DNA of 64,000 nt from an uncultured Phycisphaerales bacterium. Its GTDB lineage: Bacteria; Planctomycetota; Phycisphaerae; WQYP01. The position numbers and the translations under genes are program-made. Below the pieces are notes generated by a model that did no database searches, was not told the origin of the DNA, and saw only the letters and a program-made list of their open reading frames with translations. This document shows positions 2,532 through 24,315 of this stretch, in pieces. The stretch is taken from NCBI GenBank assembly GCA_903845195.1, contig CAIMWO010000033.1, positions 2,347-66,346 of the forward strand, given 5' to 3'. Every line of letters begins with the position of its first letter. Positions within the stretch are counted from its first letter, which is position 1.

Positions 2532-5500
2532 ATGATTTCTGTCCAATGTCCATCATGCAAGATGGTGCATTCGTTGCCCGAGTCGGCGTTGGGTAAGAAC
2601 GCACGCTGCAACGACTGCCAGCATGTGTTTGTCGTTACGCATGACGCGGGGCTCGTGGAGTTAGGCGTTGGCCAAGGGGTTGTGAGCCCGGCGCCCCAAA
2701 AGATTCAGCTTCACCCCCAAGTTCACTCACGATCACCCCAAACGGGCGGTTTGGAAGTATTGTCGGACGAACGATCTCGGTCCAAAGCCAATAAGGTCCT
2801 GCACATCGGAGTGCCTGCCGGACTATTCCTGGTCGCGGGGATTGTCGTTGCGGTTTATGTTCTATTACCGGGTCACCCCAAGCCGACTTCTACGGCAAGC
2901 ACCGAAATTGCCCCACCCGGCAATGTTCGCAACACCCTGCGGCCCTCTCTCAGCAAAGCTCGCGAATTAGCCAACCGTGAAATTGACGCAGCTCGGCTAA
3001 GTGGTATCGCTTACGCCTGTATGATCTATGCCAGCAGAAACAACGACCAAATGCCTGCTCATCTATTTGCCATCACGTCCGACTTGCATTCGCCCCAAGA
3101 TTTCAAGTCCAAGTTTTCGTTAACTCTCGAGCCCACCGCCATGACCTCCACCCCCGCCGACCTTGAGTCTTGGTGCGATTGGATCTACATCGGTGCCGAT
3201 CTCTCAACTACCACTTCCTCCGCGGAAAGGATCGTCTTCGCGTACAGCAAGGATTTGTACGCCGACCACAGCCGCTGCATTGTTTTCGCGGATTGCCACT
3301 CGGAATGGATTGAAGCCTCCAATCTGACAGGTGTTTTTAACAAATCTAACAACGCCCGCGCCGCGGTCGGACTTTCTCCTGTTTCCCTCGATGGCCCGCC
3401 TCCGAAATCAGTCCCGCCGCATCGCATCAGTTCGAAGCGCCCGCCAGCAACTACACCGCCGGCCGAGTTTCATAAAATTGCAGGTTTGCAGACTGTGGCG
3501 AGGTTCCTTGAGCCGCCGATGCAATGTGCTTGCCCGTGTTGGTCCCCTGACGGGAAATACATCATGTTCATTGCTCGACCCGCTGAACAGGCGGGCGGAA
3601 ATCTTTCTAAGGGACCATGGAATCCTGGAATTGTGCCGGGGAACATTTGGGTTGTTTCCGTCGACGGGGCGAAGAGATGGTTGGTCAGCAACTTCTTCTT
3701 CGGCAAACTTCTAACGCCTGATGGCCGCCGCGCCGATCCATTGAAACTAGATGTGAGTACGGTGTCTTGGTCGCTTGACGGCGGGAAAATCGCTTTCCGG
3801 GCTTATGAGGGAGAAGATAGGCCGATTGGAATTCAAACCGATCTCTATGTTATGAAAGCCGATGCGTCTGACGTTTTCCGGGTAGCAAAAGATGATGGTT
3901 GGGGTAAGTTGGGCAATCGCACGCTTCAATGGACACCGGATGGAAAGGGGTTGCTCTTGGGTGGGTCAACGATTGATTTAGAAGGAACGAAGTTATCCCC
4001 GCTTACCGTTTCCGGTGGAGGAAAGGTCACAAACGCTTGCTCTTCGCGTGATGGGACGAAGTTGGCAGCGATCGTCGAAGAACGTACAGAAAGCGGCCTT
4101 GGTGTAATTGACCGAAGTTTGCAGCAGGTGAAGTGGCTCGCTCGTGGCAAAATGTTCGGCGGTGGGGGCACGAATTACGCTCCGCGATCTTGGTCGCCGG
4201 ACGGGAAACAGATCGCAGCGGATGCCACAAATAATGTGGGCAGAGATAAGCACATTGCTATCTTTGATGCACTAAGCGGAAGTGAGCGGAGGCTCGTCGA
4301 CGGTGCGGCACCGTCCTGGTCCCCTGACGGGCAACGAATCGTCTTTGCTGGGGGGGAAGGCGACCCGGACAATCTGTATCTGATAAGCCCCAACGGGAAG
4401 AATTTGCAGAGGATCACCAATCTGACTCCTCCGGGGGTGCAAATGATCTGGGGTTCGTATCCATGTTGGTCACCCGACGGGAAACAGATTGTGTTCAGGC
4501 GCGGTCAATACATTTGGGTGGCTAACCTTGACGGAACGAGACAATCGCCGATTGCCATAAGTACCGATCATTCACGTGTAACGAACACGGGCACTCGAGT
4601 TGGGCCATGTGAATGGACACCACTGTGGAAACCGGACGGAGGCATAGCGTTTACGCCGTATAAGGAAGCAAAATGGGAGAGTTTGGGAGCAACGCCTGAG
4701 TTTGAGGTGTCCGTAACAAACGTCGATGGCACAGAAGTTCGTCCGCTTGTGCGGCTTCAATCGCCAGCCGATGGTGATGGCGCCAGCTGGTCACCTGACG
4801 GAAGTAAGATGGCCTTTGACAAAAACGGAAATATCTGGGTTGCGAAGGGAGATGGCACTGGTCAGAGCAGGCTTACGGGAGGCCGGCATCCTCAGTGGTC
4901 GCCTGATAGTCAGAAAATTCTCTATGTTCAAGGCAGCAAAGGCAACGAAGTTCTTTGCACAATCGGTTTCGACGGCAGCAATCAGACGCAGATAACGGAA
5001 CCAAGTCACGGATACACCGATTATCATTGTTGGTGTCCGGACGGCAAGAAAATAGCCTTCAATGGTCAGTACGGAATATGGATTGTCTCCGCTCAAGGCG
5101 GCGATGCGCATCGCATTGCACCGGGGGTCTACCAGCCGCGCTGGTCGCCGGACGGCAAAAAGTTGGCGTTTTTCGTTCAAGGGAAACCAGTCGAGCTGCC
5201 CGCGGCAGTGAGTCCGTCTACCGTATACGTTATGAATGTGGACGGCAGTGGCATTCGGCCTGTAATACAGGTAGATAAAACCGCGTACGGCGATAATGTT
5301 GTGAACAACCTATCATGGAGCCCCGACGGCAAACACATCCTCGTCGGAGAGACCGCAAAGGGCGGCTACGATTATGAGGACCGGCATCATATTTGGATCG
5401 TGGATGTCAGCGAGCCGGTGTTTTACCAAGCGTCGTACGTTAGTTCTCCCTTGCTTGCCTGGAAAGTACCGGCGTTCGATCCTGTGCCGCGGGTCATTTC

Positions 5501-19734: not shown

Positions 19735-20364
19735 TCACACTTTCGTTCGACCGCTGATCGCGTCTGCCAGAATTGCTTTGTTCGAATATTCGATCTGTGC
19801 CCCCGCCGGAAGACCGCGTGCCAATCGCGTGATCGCAATGTGCGGCGCCACCCGTCCAATCTCCTGCTGCAGATATAACGAAGTGCCGTCCCCCTCCATC
19901 GTCGGATTCGTCGCCAGGATGATTTCTTTCACTCCCGACGCCACGCCCTCCACCGAGGGCCCAATCCGCGCCAGCAACTGCGGTATCGTCAGTTCACTCG
20001 GCGTCACATTCTCCAGCGGCGCGATTCTCCCCAGCAACACGTGATATACGCCTTTGAAAACTCCGGTCGATTCCAATTGCAGCAAATCCTTCGGCTGCTC
20101 CACCACGCAGATCACTTCATGGTCCCGCCCCGCGTTACCGCAGATACTGCATGGATCGCTCTCCGTCAGATTGAAGCAGATCGAACAATGCCGCACCTGC
20201 TCCTTCATCGAACGGATCGCATCGGCCAGCGCCAGCGCCTCCTCCTTCGGGCTCTTCAGCAGATGAAACGCCATCCGCTCGGCCGATCGCGTCCCCACTC
20301 CCGGCAGCCGCGCCAGCATCTCCATCAACTTCCGCAGCGACTCAGTGTAATGTGGATTTGTCAT
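19735..20364 (-). CDS. recR: recombination protein RecR
   Basis: HhH LPGVGTRSAERMAFHLL, C4 zinc finger CSICFNLTESDPCSIC, Toprim VICVVEQPKDLLQLE. Conserved dnaX-ybaB-recR order. Confidence 0.9.
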   Translation of the reverse strand: MTNPHYTESLRKLMEMLARLPGVGTRSAERMAFHLLKSPKEEALALADAIRSMKEQVRHCSICFNLTESDPCSICGNAGRDHEVICVVEQPKDLLQLESTGVFKGVYHVLLGRIAPLENVTPSELTIPQLLARIGPSVEGVASGVKEIILATNPTMEGDGTSLYLQQEIGRVAPHIAITRLARGLPAGAQIEYSNKAILADAISGRTKV

Positions 20365-20452: not shown

Positions 20453-20797
20453 TTACTGCCCCAGCATCCCGCGCATCGCACCCAAATCCAATCCACCCGT
20501 CACCTGCTCCATTTCCTTCTCGACGGCCGCCTTCGCATTCCTGATCGCCTGGTTCACCGCGGCCCGCGTCAGATCCGAAAGCAACTCCGTATCCGTCAGC
20601 GGCGCCGTCGTCGCGTACGTAATCCGCGTAATTTCGAAAAGCCCGTTTGCTTCTGCTGTTACCAGCGATCCGCCCGCCGTGCCTGTGGCCCGCAACTGTG
20701 GCAGCCGCGCCTGCACTTCCTGCATCTTCGCCTGCATCTCCCGCGCCTTGGCCAGCATCGGCCCCATCTGTCCCAACGCCTTCAACTGATCAAACAT
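20453..20797 (-). CDS. ybaB: nucleoid-associated protein YbaB/EbfC
   Basis: 114 aa; MFDQLKALGQMGPMLAKAREMQAKMQEVQARL...GGLVTAEANGLFEITRI matches the YbaB family. Located between dnaX and recR. Confidence 0.85.
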   Translation of the reverse strand: MFDQLKALGQMGPMLAKAREMQAKMQEVQARLPQLRATGTAGGSLVTAEANGLFEITRITYATTAPLTDTELLSDLTRAAVNQAIRNAKAAVEKEMEQVTGGLDLGAMRGMLGQ

Positions 20798-20800
20798 TTC

Positions 20801-21652
20801 TCACTCTTCCGTATTCAACAACTCAATGTTCACGACATTCGCATCCAGCTTCTTCATCAACTCCTGCACCACCGGATTGTTTTCCACATCATCCTTCACC
20901 TTCGGCGGAATCCGCTGTGCCTGGGGCGTCGGCGGGGCTGCCGGTCCGCCAAACCGTGCTGCATCGTTCCCCTTTGCTCCGCCCGCCGGATCGTGCGCGA
21001 CCTCCGGAAACACAAGACTCAGCCGAATCCCCTTGCCCGTCACCGCCCGCAGCGATTCCTCAATCTTCGCCCGGGCTTTCTCATTGGCAAACCCTTTCAG
21101 ATTCGCAGGCATCCACGCCATGGTCTCCCCCGTCTCCGCATTCAAGGATTCCAGCCGCCCCTCATACCCCAACGTCCGATCCAGGTACCCAAACAGTTTT
21201 CTTGCCGCCGCCCACACCGCCGCCAGATTTCCCAGATCCGCTACCATTTCCACCGGCGCCGCCTGCACCGCTGCCGGCATCACCGGTCCCGGCCTCCCCA
21301 TCGGCCGCGGCCCCGGACGTCCCGCCCCGCCCACGCCTTCCTGCCGGGTCTGGGCATTGCGCGCCTCTAACTCTTCCTTCTTCTGCCGCATGTGCGACTT
21401 CATCACTTCATAGATCGATTCCTCCCCCTCCGGCTCCGCATCAGGTGGCATGCCCAGTGAGGCAGAGGCCGGGGGGGGGCCGCTGGGCATGTTCGGTTGA
21501 GTTTGTCCCGTCCCCGCCACCTCCCCCAGCACCGCTGCCGCTGCCGCCGGATCAATCGCCACTTCCCTCGGCGGCGCCGTGACTCCCTCCGTCCTCACGG
21601 TCTCACTTTTTTTTTTGACCCGCCCCAGGCGAGTTAGAACTGCTTCCGTCAC
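20801..21652 (-). CDS. dnaX: DNA polymerase III tau-specific C-terminal region (domains IV-V), encoded in the +1 frame relative to the upstream dnaX segment; overlaps it by 50 nt
   Basis: 283 aa ORF reading ..RLGRVKKKSETVRTEGV.. through the same A10 run. Pro/Gly-rich linker then a conserved C-terminal block (AAVWAAARKLFGYLDRTLGY...). Combined length ~655 aa, the size of a bacterial tau. Confidence 0.65.
   Translation of the reverse strand: MTEAVLTRLGRVKKKSETVRTEGVTAPPREVAIDPAAAAAVLGEVAGTGQTQPNMPSGPPPASASLGMPPDAEPEGEESIYEVMKSHMRQKKEELEARNAQTRQEGVGGAGRPGPRPMGRPGPVMPAAVQAAPVEMVADLGNLAAVWAAARKLFGYLDRTLGYEGRLESLNAETGETMAWMPANLKGFANEKARAKIEESLRAVTGKGIRLSLVFPEVAHDPAGGAKGNDAARFGGPAAPPTPQAQRIPPKVKDDVENNPVVQELMKKLDANVVNIELLNTEE
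21577..21616 (-). promoter_or_regulatory. putative dnaX recoding cassette: A10 slippery run (21607-21616), in-frame UGA, stem-loop CCGUGA-12 nt-UCACGG beginning 6 nt downstream
   Basis: Minus-strand mRNA reads GGU CAA AAA AAA AAG UGA GAC CGUGAGGACGGAGGGAGUCACGG. Layout mirrors the E. coli dnaX A AAA AAG heptamer plus stem-loop. Confidence 0.5.
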
Positions 21653-22778
21653 CTCCGGCCATTAGTTGCCGGATACTCGAGAATTGCTCCGCCAGCGCCA
21701 ACCTCACGATCAACGCATCGAACAGCGGCCGGTGCATCGTGCTCGATTTCAACGACCGCAGCGACAACTCGCACAGCGTGATCAAATGCACCAGCGTCGG
21801 CGGATCATATTTCCCCGACAGCGCCGTGAAAGCTCCCCGAGCCTCTCCCGGCACATCCAGCAGGTCCGTCTTCTCCCCGCACGTGGCTACCAGCATCAAT
21901 CCACGGAAAAATTCGATCAGCTCCCCCAGCACTTGCTCCACCCCCATTCCATCCTTCAGCAGCTTGTCCGCCTTGATGATCGCCGCCGCCGCGTCCCCTT
22001 CCGCCATCGCCGATACCAGCTCCGCGATCGAAGCCGTCGGCGGCTTGCCCAGCAACTCCTCAATCACCTTGTCCGTGATCTTCTTTTCCCCCATCGACAG
22101 CACGCGATCCAGGATCGACAACGCATCGCGCATCGACCCATTCCCCAGCCGCGCGATCCGGAAGATCGCATCCTCCTCCGCCTCCACGCCCTCATCCTTG
22201 CAGATCGCCCGCAGATGCTCCGCAATCTGCTGCGTCGGAATATTCTTGAAATCAAACCGCTGGCAGCGGCTGATGATCGTCGCCGGCACCTTGTGCACTT
22301 CCGTCGTCGCAAAGATAAACTTCACATGCGACGGCGGCTCCTCCAACGTCTTCAACAACGCATTAAACGCCCCGCCCGACAACATGTGCACTTCGTCGAT
22401 AATGTAAATCTTGTACGCGCTCCGCGCCGGCCGAATCCCCGCCGACTGCCGCAGCTCACGCACCTGGTCCACCGAGTTGTTCGACGCACCGTCGATCTCG
22501 ATGACATCCATATCCTCGCCCCGCGCGATCGCCTTGCACGTCTCGCACGATCCGCACGGGTTCCCATCTTTTACGTTCGGGCAGTTGAGCGCCTTGGCCA
22601 AGATCCGCGCCGCCGACGTCTTCCCCACCCCGCGCGTCCCTGTAAACATGAACGCATGCGCCACCCGCCCCATCTTGATGGCGTTCTTCAGCGTCTGCGA
22701 AACCGCCTCCTGCCCGACCAGTTCATCAAAGGTCTGCGATCGATACCGCCGCGCCAGTACTGTATAAGTTTCCGCCAT
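21603..22778 (-). CDS. dnaX: DNA polymerase III subunit gamma/tau, domains I-III; the in-frame product (391 aa) terminates ...PGAGQKKK* immediately after an A10 run
   Basis: Walker A FTGTRGVGKTSAARILAKALNC, zinc module CGSCETCKAI, SRC/sensor motifs. Stop TGA at 21603-21605 (minus). Confidence 0.9.
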   Translation of the reverse strand: MAETYTVLARRYRSQTFDELVGQEAVSQTLKNAIKMGRVAHAFMFTGTRGVGKTSAARILAKALNCPNVKDGNPCGSCETCKAIARGEDMDVIEIDGASNNSVDQVRELRQSAGIRPARSAYKIYIIDEVHMLSGGAFNALLKTLEEPPSHVKFIFATTEVHKVPATIISRCQRFDFKNIPTQQIAEHLRAICKDEGVEAEEDAIFRIARLGNGSMRDALSILDRVLSMGEKKITDKVIEELLGKPPTASIAELVSAMAEGDAAAAIIKADKLLKDGMGVEQVLGELIEFFRGLMLVATCGEKTDLLDVPGEARGAFTALSGKYDPPTLVHLITLCELSLRSLKSSTMHRPLFDALIVRLALAEQFSSIRQLMAGGDGSSSNSPGAGQKKK

Positions 22779-23025
22779 AGACCCGGATTATAACCCATCC
22801 CGCCACTTATGAAACTGCGTTGAAATTCAATGAATAATCCCATCTTTTCCCCGCTCGCTCATCTCTCCTTGGACGACTACTTGGAAGGCCTCTTCCGCCG
22901 CGCACTGACAATGACAAATAACCACCCTCTAGCTTTTCCCACCCCAACCCGATAATATTCATCCACGCGATCCTGTAATCCTCGGTGGAACCGATCTCGC
23001 GTACTTCTGTGGCCAGGGATGCGCC

Positions 23026-24315
23026 ATGACCATCACCACACATAGCCGCACTCTTCCTCGTCGGGCCCCTAGCGCATCTCCTGCGCCTGCCCCGTTAACA
23101 ATCCCGCCTGAACCCATCGCAATCGCGGCGACCCAAACCGTTGAGGCGCAGATAACCTCTGAATCCCCTGCAAAGCCGCCACAGGATTCAACCGATTTGT
23201 TGATTATGAGCTCTCTCGATACCAAGCCGCCGCCGGCGCCTCCCGGCACCAGTGATCTGCTCGATGCCCTCGTGCAGGATCACCTCGAGCGCGCCACTGA
23301 GCCGCCCGACGTTGCCGCGCCCGCTGTTCCGACGATGACCGCCCTTTCGTCTGAAGATCGCGCGGCCATGCTGCACCGCGAAATCGAATCGCTGCTCTCC
23401 GGGACTAAGGACGCCGCAATGGCAACCCTCGCGTCCGTTGCCGATGGAATTTTGCAGACCGTCGCCGATGCCGGCGAGTCCGCGCCCCCCATGCCCATTG
23501 AACCCGCCCTATCGTCGGCTCCTGTGGCAGAACGGTCACCCGCGCCGAACTCACTCGCCAACGAATCCCTCTCCGTCGATCAACTGGATGCGCTCCTCAC
23601 GCCGGCGTTGCCCGGAAATGAAACTGAAGAAACAATTACTGCCGCACCGCTTCCGGAGGACGCTCCTCCTGAATCCATCGCGGTTCTCCCCAGTCCGCTC
23701 CTCGATGACCCCAAGACGCCCGCTTCATCGGATCATCTTGAGGGCCTGTCCAACGTGCCGTTGCCCGCTGCCGCAGCCGCACAGGCGATAGCTCCTGACG
23801 TCGACGAAGGCGAGCAGAAGATCGCGGAAGCCGAGGGCGTGCTTGCCGAAGAACTCGCACAATTGATGCAGGAGAAGCCCGAAACCGTACCCGCCGGCCC
23901 GCTCGAGACTGCGTCAACTGCCGCAGCGGAAGAACCCGCGACAGGCCTGGCCGCCCCGAGCGCCTCGACGCAAACGTCTCCGCCGGCCCCCGAATCCGTG
24001 TCCGCCAAGCCGGCCGAAACCGCTACCAAAGCGCCGGCATCTCCCGCGGTCGGATCCGCCGACCCGTCTTCGAAAGAAGCAGCCGTCGCAGCCAACGCCA
24101 AGATCGTCCAGGCGCTCACTCCCACCCAATCGAACAAGCCAAAGGCCGGATTCGTCAGCAATGTGGCCAGCGACCTCGCCTTGATGATCGCACAATTGAT
24201 CGACTTGCCATTCTCCTGGGTCGGAGAACTCGACAAGAACATCCTCGGTGTGGCGGCATTCATGCTGCTCCTCTCCGGCGGAGTGCTCAAACTCATCGCC
24301 TGGTGGCTCGGCTAA
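23026..24315 (+). CDS. Pro/Ala/Glu-rich low-complexity protein with a single C-terminal TM helix
   Basis: 429 aa dominated by P, A, E, S, T (..APAPLTIPPEPIAIAATQ.., ..PAPESVSAKPAETATKAPASPA..). C-terminal ILGVAAFMLLLSGGVLKLIAWWLG. Start uncertain; reality of the ORF is moderate. Confidence 0.4.
   Translation: MTITTHSRTLPRRAPSASPAPAPLTIPPEPIAIAATQTVEAQITSESPAKPPQDSTDLLIMSSLDTKPPPAPPGTSDLLDALVQDHLERATEPPDVAAPAVPTMTALSSEDRAAMLHREIESLLSGTKDAAMATLASVADGILQTVADAGESAPPMPIEPALSSAPVAERSPAPNSLANESLSVDQLDALLTPALPGNETEETITAAPLPEDAPPESIAVLPSPLLDDPKTPASSDHLEGLSNVPLPAAAAAQAIAPDVDEGEQKIAEAEGVLAEELAQLMQEKPETVPAGPLETASTAAAEEPATGLAAPSASTQTSPPAPESVSAKPAETATKAPASPAVGSADPSSKEAAVAANAKIVQALTPTQSNKPKAGFVSNVASDLALMIAQLIDLPFSWVGELDKNILGVAAFMLLLSGGVLKLIAWWLG

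Follow-up and report, generated by a model that had tools for sequence, protein, structure and literature searches.

The dnaX gene of an uncultured Phycisphaerales bacterium (Planctomycetota; Phycisphaerae), carried by contig CAIMWO010000033.1 of assembly GCA_903845195.1, is divided between two overlapping open reading frames (ORFs) that meet at a run of ten adenines (A10), an arrangement which suggests that the long and short forms of the clamp-loader subunit, tau and gamma, are produced through recoding. Coordinates are those of the 64,000-nucleotide (nt) stretch of the contig that was analysed, hereafter the window; dnaX lies on its minus strand, and sequences are given as read on that strand. 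The features on which the argument turns are the following.

22778..21603, minus strand: dnaX ORF1, clamp-loader ATPase domains I–III; ATG start at 22778; 391 amino acids (aa); the gamma product as encoded in the DNA
21652..20801, minus strand: ORF2, +1 frame; 283 aa; reads GUC AAA AAA AAA AGU GAG ACC across A10
21634..21618, minus strand: predicted GC-rich hairpin ACUCGCC-UGG-GGCGGGU; one nucleotide, C21617, separates its 3′ arm from the run
21616..21607, minus strand: A10 slippery run, meeting point of both dnaX frames (T10 on the plus strand)
21607..20801, minus strand: tau-specific coding region, +1 frame, beginning with AGU, whose A is the final one of the run, and extending to the stop; adds 268 aa
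21605..21603, minus strand: UGA stop of the zero frame, abutting the run; would end gamma on A10 and A13 transcripts
21597..21595, minus strand: UGA stop of the third (−1) frame; would be reached on A11 and A8 transcripts, with the gamma-like ending ...QKK(K)VRP-stop
21265..21008, minus strand: alpha-alpha-beta-beta-alpha-beta domain of the tau-specific region (ORF2 residues ~130–215; AlphaFold2), with a predicted KH-like/DnaA-domain-I-like fold

ORF1 matches the Pfam families DNA_pol3_delta2 (1e-45), DNAX_ATPase_lid (5e-14) and DNA_pol3_gamma3 (2e-10), and its C-terminus, ...NSPGAGQKKK-stop, is encoded by CAA AAA AAA AAG UGA. Since UGA follows A10 directly, the DNA encodes only gamma. The longer subunit, tau, bears in addition the C-terminal region that binds polymerase and helicase. 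The run is the sole A/T run of at least nine in the window (59.7% GC; expected number ~0.011), and dnaX is single-copy here. A preliminary description of the same DNA had reported a dnaX split over two frames at A10 and then closed by UGA, with an ATPase ORF at 21603..22778 ending in GQKKK and a tau region at 20801..21652 in the +1 frame; on re-reading, all of these sequence statements proved correct.

The first question is whether ORF2 belongs to DnaX. Pfam holds no family for it, and a profile of its homologues compared with PDB sequences gave nothing significant (best E 0.17, unrelated ABC transporters). ORF2 aligns to residues 418–620 of P0104, a 628-aa in-frame DnaX encoded by the relative L017 (E 2e-39), and to residues 490–632 of P0102, a 638-aa in-frame DnaX encoded by the relative L029 (E 7e-21). 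Its AlphaFold2 model has a mean predicted local distance difference test score of 67, with values of 80–93 over residues ~130–215, and the top Foldseek matches in the PDB are DnaA domain I (4tps; template-modelling score 0.67–0.70 on target), 5fkv_E and 5fku_E (the C-terminal part of tau as seen by cryo-EM in E. coli Pol III), and DciA (8a3v). The E-values of these matches are weak (0.01–0.2); the predicted fold is nevertheless consistent with that of tau domain V. Across the clade ORF2 is under clear purifying selection, with many invariant or near-invariant columns. By homology, then, ORF2 is the C-terminus of tau.

It might be objected that the gene is simply split, with no recoding at all: DnaX would be gamma-only, and ORF2 would be translated separately, from a start in the overlap or by termination–reinitiation, as a distinct protein providing the C-terminal functions of tau in trans. 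Indeed, all 49 ORF2 homologues, found in annotated Phycisphaerae/Phycisphaerales metagenome-assembled genomes (MAGs) at 36–89% identity, are called as stand-alone ORFs of 155–283 aa, and the window offers a GUG at 21652 as well as a GUG in the tau frame 3 codons past the run. The positions of candidate starts, however, are not conserved. In five relatives (L001, L003, L005, L016 and L018) the conserved motifs IDPxAAAAV and EENIYEVMK precede the first ATG, GTG or TTG past the run in the tau frame; the tau frame must therefore be entered through the run, and independent initiation of ORF2 was rejected as a general mechanism on this ground. Many of the homologues as called start with the read-through of the run itself, 'R[VG]KKKS[DE]'. 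Separate translation would, moreover, leave the invariant A10, the abutting stop and the closed third frame without a reason, and the same domains are fused in the in-frame relatives. We regard a split gene without recoding as highly unlikely.

The second question is whether A10 is real. A homopolymer of this length is a classic error-prone context, and the preliminary description had allowed for a true A9 with a sequencing or assembly error, in which case tau would be in frame and the site would be of the E. coli or Thermus kind. This alternative draws some support from the close relative L008, a Nanopore-only MAG of the Microflora Danica (MFD) project, which has A9 and a fused open frame of 619 aa (called as protein P0057, 617 aa). 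The exact ORF2 protein is, however, present on at least 11 contigs, six of which were retrieved for DNA comparison. These six independent assemblies of the same organism, comprising MEGAHIT 'k141' contigs, 'BUCK21' scaffolds and Logan assemblies of SRR5754711 and ERR4194899, come from different samples and assemblers; they are 99.97–100% identical to the window, and all have A10 and the 391/283-aa split. A10 is also found in ~16 related Phycisphaerae genomes and metagenome contigs (55–83% DnaX identity), and every short-read assembly of the relatives has exactly A10, whichever frame holds tau. Departures from this length are confined to contigs that appear long-read-derived, their platform being deduced from contig names or sources: A9 in L008 and in L032, the latter on 'contig_5523' of 2.27 Mb, and A11 in L033 and L035, both with 'np1212' in their contig names. 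A further A9, in L022, was set aside as evidence for a variant or transcript-level A9, this contig differing from its Illumina twin L018 by 42 indels over 1252 nt and being too error-rich to inform. The Microflora Danica project was sequenced by Nanopore (PMC12313526), and Nanopore homopolymers of at least 10 bases are acknowledged to be unreliable in consensus (PMC9262707). With A10 in all short-read assemblies, a homopolymer error in the window is very improbable, and we reject it.

Two observations on the tract stand apart from this argument. In L024, a BUCK21 scaffold of the same organism that is otherwise 100% identical to the window, a ~51-nt linker insertion upstream of the run (window ~21743–21750) lengthens the gamma ORF from 391 to 408 aa, a strain-level length polymorphism in the tail of domain III; the run is still A10. 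The dnaX A10 tract may also serve as a useful sentinel for homopolymer mis-calls in Phycisphaerae MAGs.

The comparison with related genomes, which the preliminary description had proposed as a check, drew on DNA from GTDB genomes, JGI metagenomes and other assemblies. The window and 11 further distinct loci (L001, L003, L004, L005, L007, L009, L015, L016, L018, L034 and L036) share the junction ..GCG[G/A]G[U/G]C-A10-G-UGA/UAG, at which the DNA frame encodes gamma and tau lies at +1; we call this arrangement type II. A10 and the split are thus kept in 12 distinct members of the clade. UGA or UAG stands right after the run in 11 of the 12 loci, the stop of L036 coming 2 codons later, and in all type-II relatives the third frame closes 2–7 codons past the KKK of the run. 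More generally, type-II loci and most in-frame relatives have their non-tau frames closed 0–7 codons past the run. The tau regions of the type-II relatives are merely 40–50% identical in protein sequence to that of the window, so A10 has stayed fixed despite considerable divergence in genomes of ~60% GC. The protein record agrees: about 43 of the 51 closest DnaX cluster representatives (at least 73% identity) are short, at 386–412 aa, and among the 120 DnaX matches listed, 38 end in ..[AG][GS]QKKK, followed by no more than 3 residues. In Phycisphaerae at greater distance (55–71% DnaX identity), most DnaX proteins are full length and read ..QKKND.. across the junction.

The frame that holds tau is far from constant. 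L029, L030 and L031 have C/G-A10-UGAC, read as CAA AAA AAA AAU GAC with tau in frame; in these loci A11 would give AAA UGA, and A9 would lead to a stop after 2 (L029), 7 (L031) or 19 (L030) codons. One extra G behind the run separates the window type, A10-G-UGAC, from their A10-UGAC. In L017 the run is followed by GUGA, and the GCU in front of it places tau in frame in another register, whereas L002, with UCA AAA AAA AAA GUG, has A10 and tau in the −1 frame, the type already published by Antonov, Coakley, Atkins, Baranov & Borodovsky (2013; Nucleic Acids Research 41:6514; PMC3711429). On this comparison it is the length of the run that is conserved and not the frame, the same A10 being found with tau in the 0, +1 or −1 frame within one class.

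Three further loci are worth recording beside these. The sister lineage L014 (Ga0068858_100232439, ~684–690), to which the proteins P0030, P0036 and P0039 are related, has only A7 (UCC AGA AAA AAA GCC) with tau in the −1 frame; its in-phase A_AAA_AAA heptamer suggests a candidate site of −1 frameshifting by the ribosome more than one of slippage, and is similar to the Chlorobium phaeobacteroides case mentioned in a 2016 review (Atkins 2016; PMC5009743). L003 (~3045–3075) and L034 (~1405–1440) carry 7-nt tandem repeats in the tau linker, ACUCAAG in ~3.5 copies and GAAUUCA in ~4 copies, respectively, within ~30 nt downstream of A10; the repeat unit is not a multiple of three.

Poly-A tracts are slippery for DNA polymerases too, as Antonov et al. 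point out, and one could imagine DNA-level phase variation, with replication slippage toggling between A9 and A10, or a decaying gene in the course of losing tau. Against this, A10 is fixed over samples and species, tau is the essential form of DnaX and dnaX is single-copy, and the purifying selection on ORF2 extends across the clade; either course is scarcely credible. Recurrence in six assemblies and 11 relatives, together with the homology of ORF2, instead supports the proposal of the preliminary description that gamma and tau are recoded here with their roles exchanged in comparison with E. coli, and the site is almost certainly genuine and not an artefact.

Two RNA structures flank the run. 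The preliminary description had singled out a 6-bp stem with a 12-nt loop, CCGUGA (21600–21595) pairing with UCACGG (21582–21577), which starts 6 nt past the run. This stem-loop exists in the minimum-free-energy (MFE) fold, but its stability is unexceptional (z = −0.39; 67 of 200 shuffles fold equally well), and among 12 aligned relatives its positions are 40–60% paired, with the central pair kept in 1 of 12. Being neither significant against shuffles nor conserved, it was discarded as a stimulator. A scan of 20500–23200 against Rfam at E<=10 returned chance miRNA and snoRNA matches only and no frameshift element, and no conserved Shine-Dalgarno (SD)-like element lies upstream of the run.

The hairpin upstream of the run gives a different picture. 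It has a 6–7-bp stem with an MFE of −9.7 kcal/mol (z = −2.08), and folding predicts it in an identical register for each of the 12 type-II loci. In a gapless alignment, 71 of the 72 cells of its six core pairs are paired, and a shift of the 3′ arm by 1–3 columns reduces pairing from 88% to 21–48%. Pair 9–21 occurs as C-G in five loci, U-A in four and U·G in three, and is never unpaired; pair 7–23 is A-U in ten and C-G in one. Each of the covarying bases occupies the first position of a codon for one of two residues in the gamma tail, and the covariation can be followed in 38 gamma proteins, where the two residues are P..G in 27, S..S in eight, S..G in one and P..S in none. The linker around the hairpin is otherwise variable, while synonymous third positions within the stem (GCG Ala, CCG/UCG, GGU/AGU) are nearly invariant. 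The upstream hairpin is thus conserved in the clade, with compensatory changes.

How, then, would tau be made? The reading that we consider best, with a probability of about 0.68 as a whole, is that of a conserved recoding site from which tau is produced only through slipped (A9 or A12) mRNA, with a part played by the upstream hairpin. RNA polymerase would slip on the rA:dT hybrid of A10 and generate a mixed population of messages, whose predicted products are as follows.

A8 mRNA: 393 aa, gamma-like
A9 mRNA: tau, 658 aa, 70.3 kDa
A10 mRNA: gamma, 391 aa, 42.3 kDa
A11 mRNA: 394 aa, gamma-like
A12 mRNA: tau, 659 aa, 70.4 kDa
A13 mRNA: 392 aa, gamma-like

Messages with A10, A11, A8 or A13 would terminate 0–3 codons past the run and yield gamma-like proteins, and tau would come solely from messages with one A lost or two gained. 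The masses are close to the ~43 and ~72 kDa anticipated in the preliminary description.

As the polymerase nears the end of the run, the nascent-RNA hairpin could form in the exit channel; with the 3′ end of the transcript 8–11 nt past the base of the stem, the remaining hybrid would be purely rA:dT, and a hairpin-induced forward realignment would then delete 1 nt, giving A9 and hence tau. The geometry of hairpin and run matches that of an intrinsic terminator and of the slippage stimulator of the Roseiflexus insertion sequence IS630. That the hairpin acts in this way, biasing slippage towards the 1-nt deletion, is plausible but tentative.

For slippage by RNA polymerase as the means of decoding, which we think probable from the layout of the site, four arguments can be advanced. 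An invariant A10 is kept, not a shift site of 4–7 nt, which is all that a −1 or +1 ribosomal site needs and which would not call for an invariant A10 at ~60% GC. The direction of the frame varies among orthologues, mixed directions at one poly-A site being the criterion of Antonov et al. (PMC3711429) for transcriptional realignment. In type II and in the majority of the in-frame loci the non-tau frames are closed near the run, as in Thermus, for which slippage was demonstrated. Finally, the hairpin sits where a ribosome would melt it, while a nascent hairpin acts on RNA polymerase.

Alternatively, the messages may be faithful A10 copies on which ribosomes undergo programmed frameshifting, perhaps aided by slow decoding of the UGA in the A site. 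Tau could be reached if tRNA-Lys slipped by +1 inside the run (CAA AAA AAA A/AG U, for ..QKKS) or if a −2 slip moved decoding from AAG to AAA (for ..QKKKS). Since the proteins are identical to those of the A9 and A12 mRNAs, sequence alone does not separate the two routes. tRNA-Lys can re-pair perfectly in any frame of the run, the stop immediately follows it as in +1 sites of the prfB type, E. coli dnaX frameshifts on A_AAA_AAG, and the 2016 review considers a ribosomal route for some reversed dnaX genes (PMC5009743). Yet a −1 shift on the in-phase A_AAA_AAG would lead to ..KKVRP-stop and not to tau; an exact A10 with tau in the 0, +1 or −1 frame is hard to fit to one directional shift; and the conserved hairpin would lie inside the mRNA channel of the ribosome while the run is decoded. 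Because a conserved SD-like element and a conserved 3′ structure are both absent, the only downstream stem-loop being neither significant nor conserved, ribosomal shifting is disfavoured as the main route and seems unlikely to us.

Several points nonetheless weigh against slippage assisted by the hairpin. A/T-run slippage in Thermus and E. coli consists mainly of insertions, as summarized in PMC5009743, and tau, which needs −1 or +2, would be a minority species unless the hairpin biases slippage to deletion. Ribosomes may also shift on long A runs, and a translational contribution can be envisaged. The A9 of L008, with tau in frame, could be real. The independent compensatory events in the hairpin are few, namely one U-A/C-G switch with U·G intermediates and one change from A-U to C-G; among the six core pairs, three never vary and a fourth shows just a single C-G to U·G change; and the stem overlaps codons of the gamma tail. 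Nor is the hairpin a universal feature of A10 dnaX genes: by a common criterion, for which the background is 12.9% of positions, a run-abutting upstream hairpin occurs in 12 of 12 type-II loci, 2 of 4 in-frame loci and 0 of 1 −1-type loci (L002), which makes it a feature of the clade only. The mechanism itself, that is, transcriptional instead of ribosomal slippage, stimulation by the hairpin, and the direction and ratio of the products, is one that we infer from sequence alone.

It is tempting to speculate that throughout this clade of free-living bacteria tau, the essential organiser of the replisome, is made only when a hairpin-driven, terminator-like forward slip of RNA polymerase deletes one A. 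This stronger proposal is doubtful; if true, it would represent the first chromosomal, essential-gene use of stem-loop-mediated slippage, for which an insertion sequence is the one case known to date. Transcription would in that event fix the tau:gamma ratio, which polymerase speed or NTP levels might tune. The frame toggle between C-A10-UGA, C-A10-G-UGA and the −1 type would be the trace of single-nucleotide changes that repeatedly switched the template-encoded subunit.

The genes downstream of dnaX are:

20797..20453, minus strand: ybaB (Pfam YbaB_DNA_bd, 1e-22), downstream of dnaX
20364..19735, minus strand: recR (Pfam RecR_HhH, RecR_ZnF and Toprim_4), downstream of ybaB

The order dnaX–ybaB–recR is canonical, and the relatives show the same order. 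Divergently upstream of dnaX lies a 429-aa ORF rich in Ala, Pro, Ser and Glu (23026–24315, plus strand), with a hydrophobic C-terminal segment and no Pfam family recorded in matching contigs. Within the tau-specific ORF, ~130 nt past A10, the dnaX strand carries C9 (G9 on the plus strand, 21471–21479), the sole G/C run of at least eight in the window; it is read AGC GGC CCC CCC CCG GCC (SGPPPA) and is not kept in the 89%-identical relative P0002.

The implications extend beyond this organism. Current annotations of dozens of Phycisphaerae genomes show dnaX as gamma-only, next to a 'hypothetical protein'; that second ORF is the C-terminus of tau, and the pair ought to be recorded as a single recoded gene. 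Long-read assemblies mis-call the tract and can silently 'repair' the gene by fusing its two parts or 'break' it by re-splitting them. An essential replication protein that depends wholly on a non-standard read-out would put a floor on the efficiency of slippage and offers a natural system for studying how the tau:gamma ratio is set. A hairpin and a homopolymer in a core gene that needs a 1-nt deletion would also constitute a testable extension, beyond a mobile element, of the model of Penno et al. (2015). Within one class A10 is kept while the template-encoded product switches between tau, gamma with tau at +1 and gamma with tau at −1. It has been predicted that sites with near-50% efficiency can swap roles through a single-nucleotide change (PMC5009743), and the within-class switching of the template product illustrates this prediction.

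The arrangement can be set against several known systems. The E. coli dnaX site concerns the same gene and boundary, with an in-phase A_AAA_AAG, a stop after the shift, and gamma and tau as products. There, however, tau occupies the zero frame and a −1 shift converts it to gamma, whereas in the window the zero frame is gamma and the same shift would yield another gamma-like product. E. coli relies on an SD ~10 nt upstream and a stem-loop ~6 nt downstream, both conserved in sites of this type; the window departs from this type of −1 frameshifting in its ..KKVRP-stop product, in having no conserved SD, in the z of −0.39 of its downstream stem, which is not conserved, and in lacking an Rfam match. 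Closer in kind is Thermus thermophilus dnaX, for which slippage at A9 was shown experimentally (Larsen et al. 2000, as described in PMC5009743 and PMC3711429). Both have a poly-A run of at least nine at the gamma/tau boundary with close stops in both alternative frames (in the window the zero frame stops at once and the third after 3 codons), and the heterogeneous mRNA population that is translated normally in Thermus, according to these accounts, is what we propose here. The roles are reversed: in Thermus tau is template-encoded and gamma arises from slipped transcripts, while the template frame of the window is gamma. Thermus slippage is described in the same sources as the insertion of extra A's, whereas the tau of the window needs −1 or +2 A. 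The in-frame relatives L029–L031 have broadly the Thermus layout, with A10, and tau is in the template frame in these as well as in L017.

The Roseiflexus IS630 element (Penno et al. 2015, PNAS, as recounted in PMC5009743) offers a parallel to the hairpin, since there GCGGGCgcaaGCCCGC directly 5′ of U5C5 provokes a 1-nt deletion. In both cases a GC-rich nascent-RNA hairpin stands directly 5′ of the slippage motif (GCGGGCgcaaGCCCGC in Roseiflexus, ACUCGCCuggGGCGGGU in the window), and the stem of 6–7 bp lying 1 nt before the run recurs in 12 of 12 loci of type II. The terminator-like geometry gives a productive 1-nt deletion in IS630, and the same change would yield tau in the window, where an A9 transcript would give tau and an A12 transcript equally so. 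The motifs differ, U5C5 being heteropolymeric and strictly unidirectional and A10 homopolymeric and able to slip unaided both ways; furthermore, IS630 is the transposase of a mobile element, whereas dnaX is an essential chromosomal gene for which a role of the hairpin is a proposal. Poly(A) tracts also rescue frameshifted genes in the endosymbionts Buchnera and Blochmannia (cited in PMC5009743), and there, as proposed for the window, a functional protein is obtained only because the polymerase is unfaithful on a poly-A tract of the genome. In the endosymbionts the indels are degenerative and the genomes decaying and AT-rich, while the tract of the window is unique, conserved and positively maintained at ~60% GC and would serve two functional products.

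The nearest precedent is the group of two-ORF dnaX genes that Antonov et al. (2013) reported from Chlorobi, Bacteroidetes and Verrucomicrobia, an account repeated in the 2016 review (PMC5009743). The survey (PMC3711429) reported 17 such genes from 12 genera, all with a −1 relation at the DNA level and none annotated or experimentally tested. Nine have A10 according to its text, and its Supplementary Fig. S3 aligns nine poly-A sequences, from Chlorobium luteolum, C. tepidum, Flavobacterium johnsoniae, F. psychrophilum, Coraliomargarita, Cytophaga, Capnocytophaga (printed as A9), Prosthecochloris and Pelodictyon; two Planctomycetes genomes were included, and none was reported in the dnaX cluster. 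These genes resemble the window in the position of the split at the end of domain III, where the domain I–III ORF ends at A10 followed by a close stop, with gamma in the DNA frame and tau in an overlapping frame that needs recoding, in their mis-annotation as two genes, in the conservation of run and split, and in the transcriptional realignment proposed for them, as here. They differ in frame, tau lying at −1 in all 17 (which need +1 A) and at +1 in the window (which needs −1 A or +2 A), although the relative L002 has the −1 relation. They differ also in taxon, in that the stop of the window abuts the run directly, and in the upstream hairpin conserved in the clade of the window, none being described for the genes of Antonov et al. 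A literature search on dnaX, Planctomycetes and slippage led to that study only, which holds no planctomycete dnaX case, and within this incomplete coverage no paper was found on the +1 relation, the abutting stop, the upstream hairpin or the toggling within a class. A two-ORF dnaX with A10 is therefore already known, and the arrangement of the window is not a new kind of system; what sets it apart is its occurrence in Phycisphaerae, the +1 position of tau, the stop that abuts the run, the conserved upstream hairpin and the toggling among three frame types.

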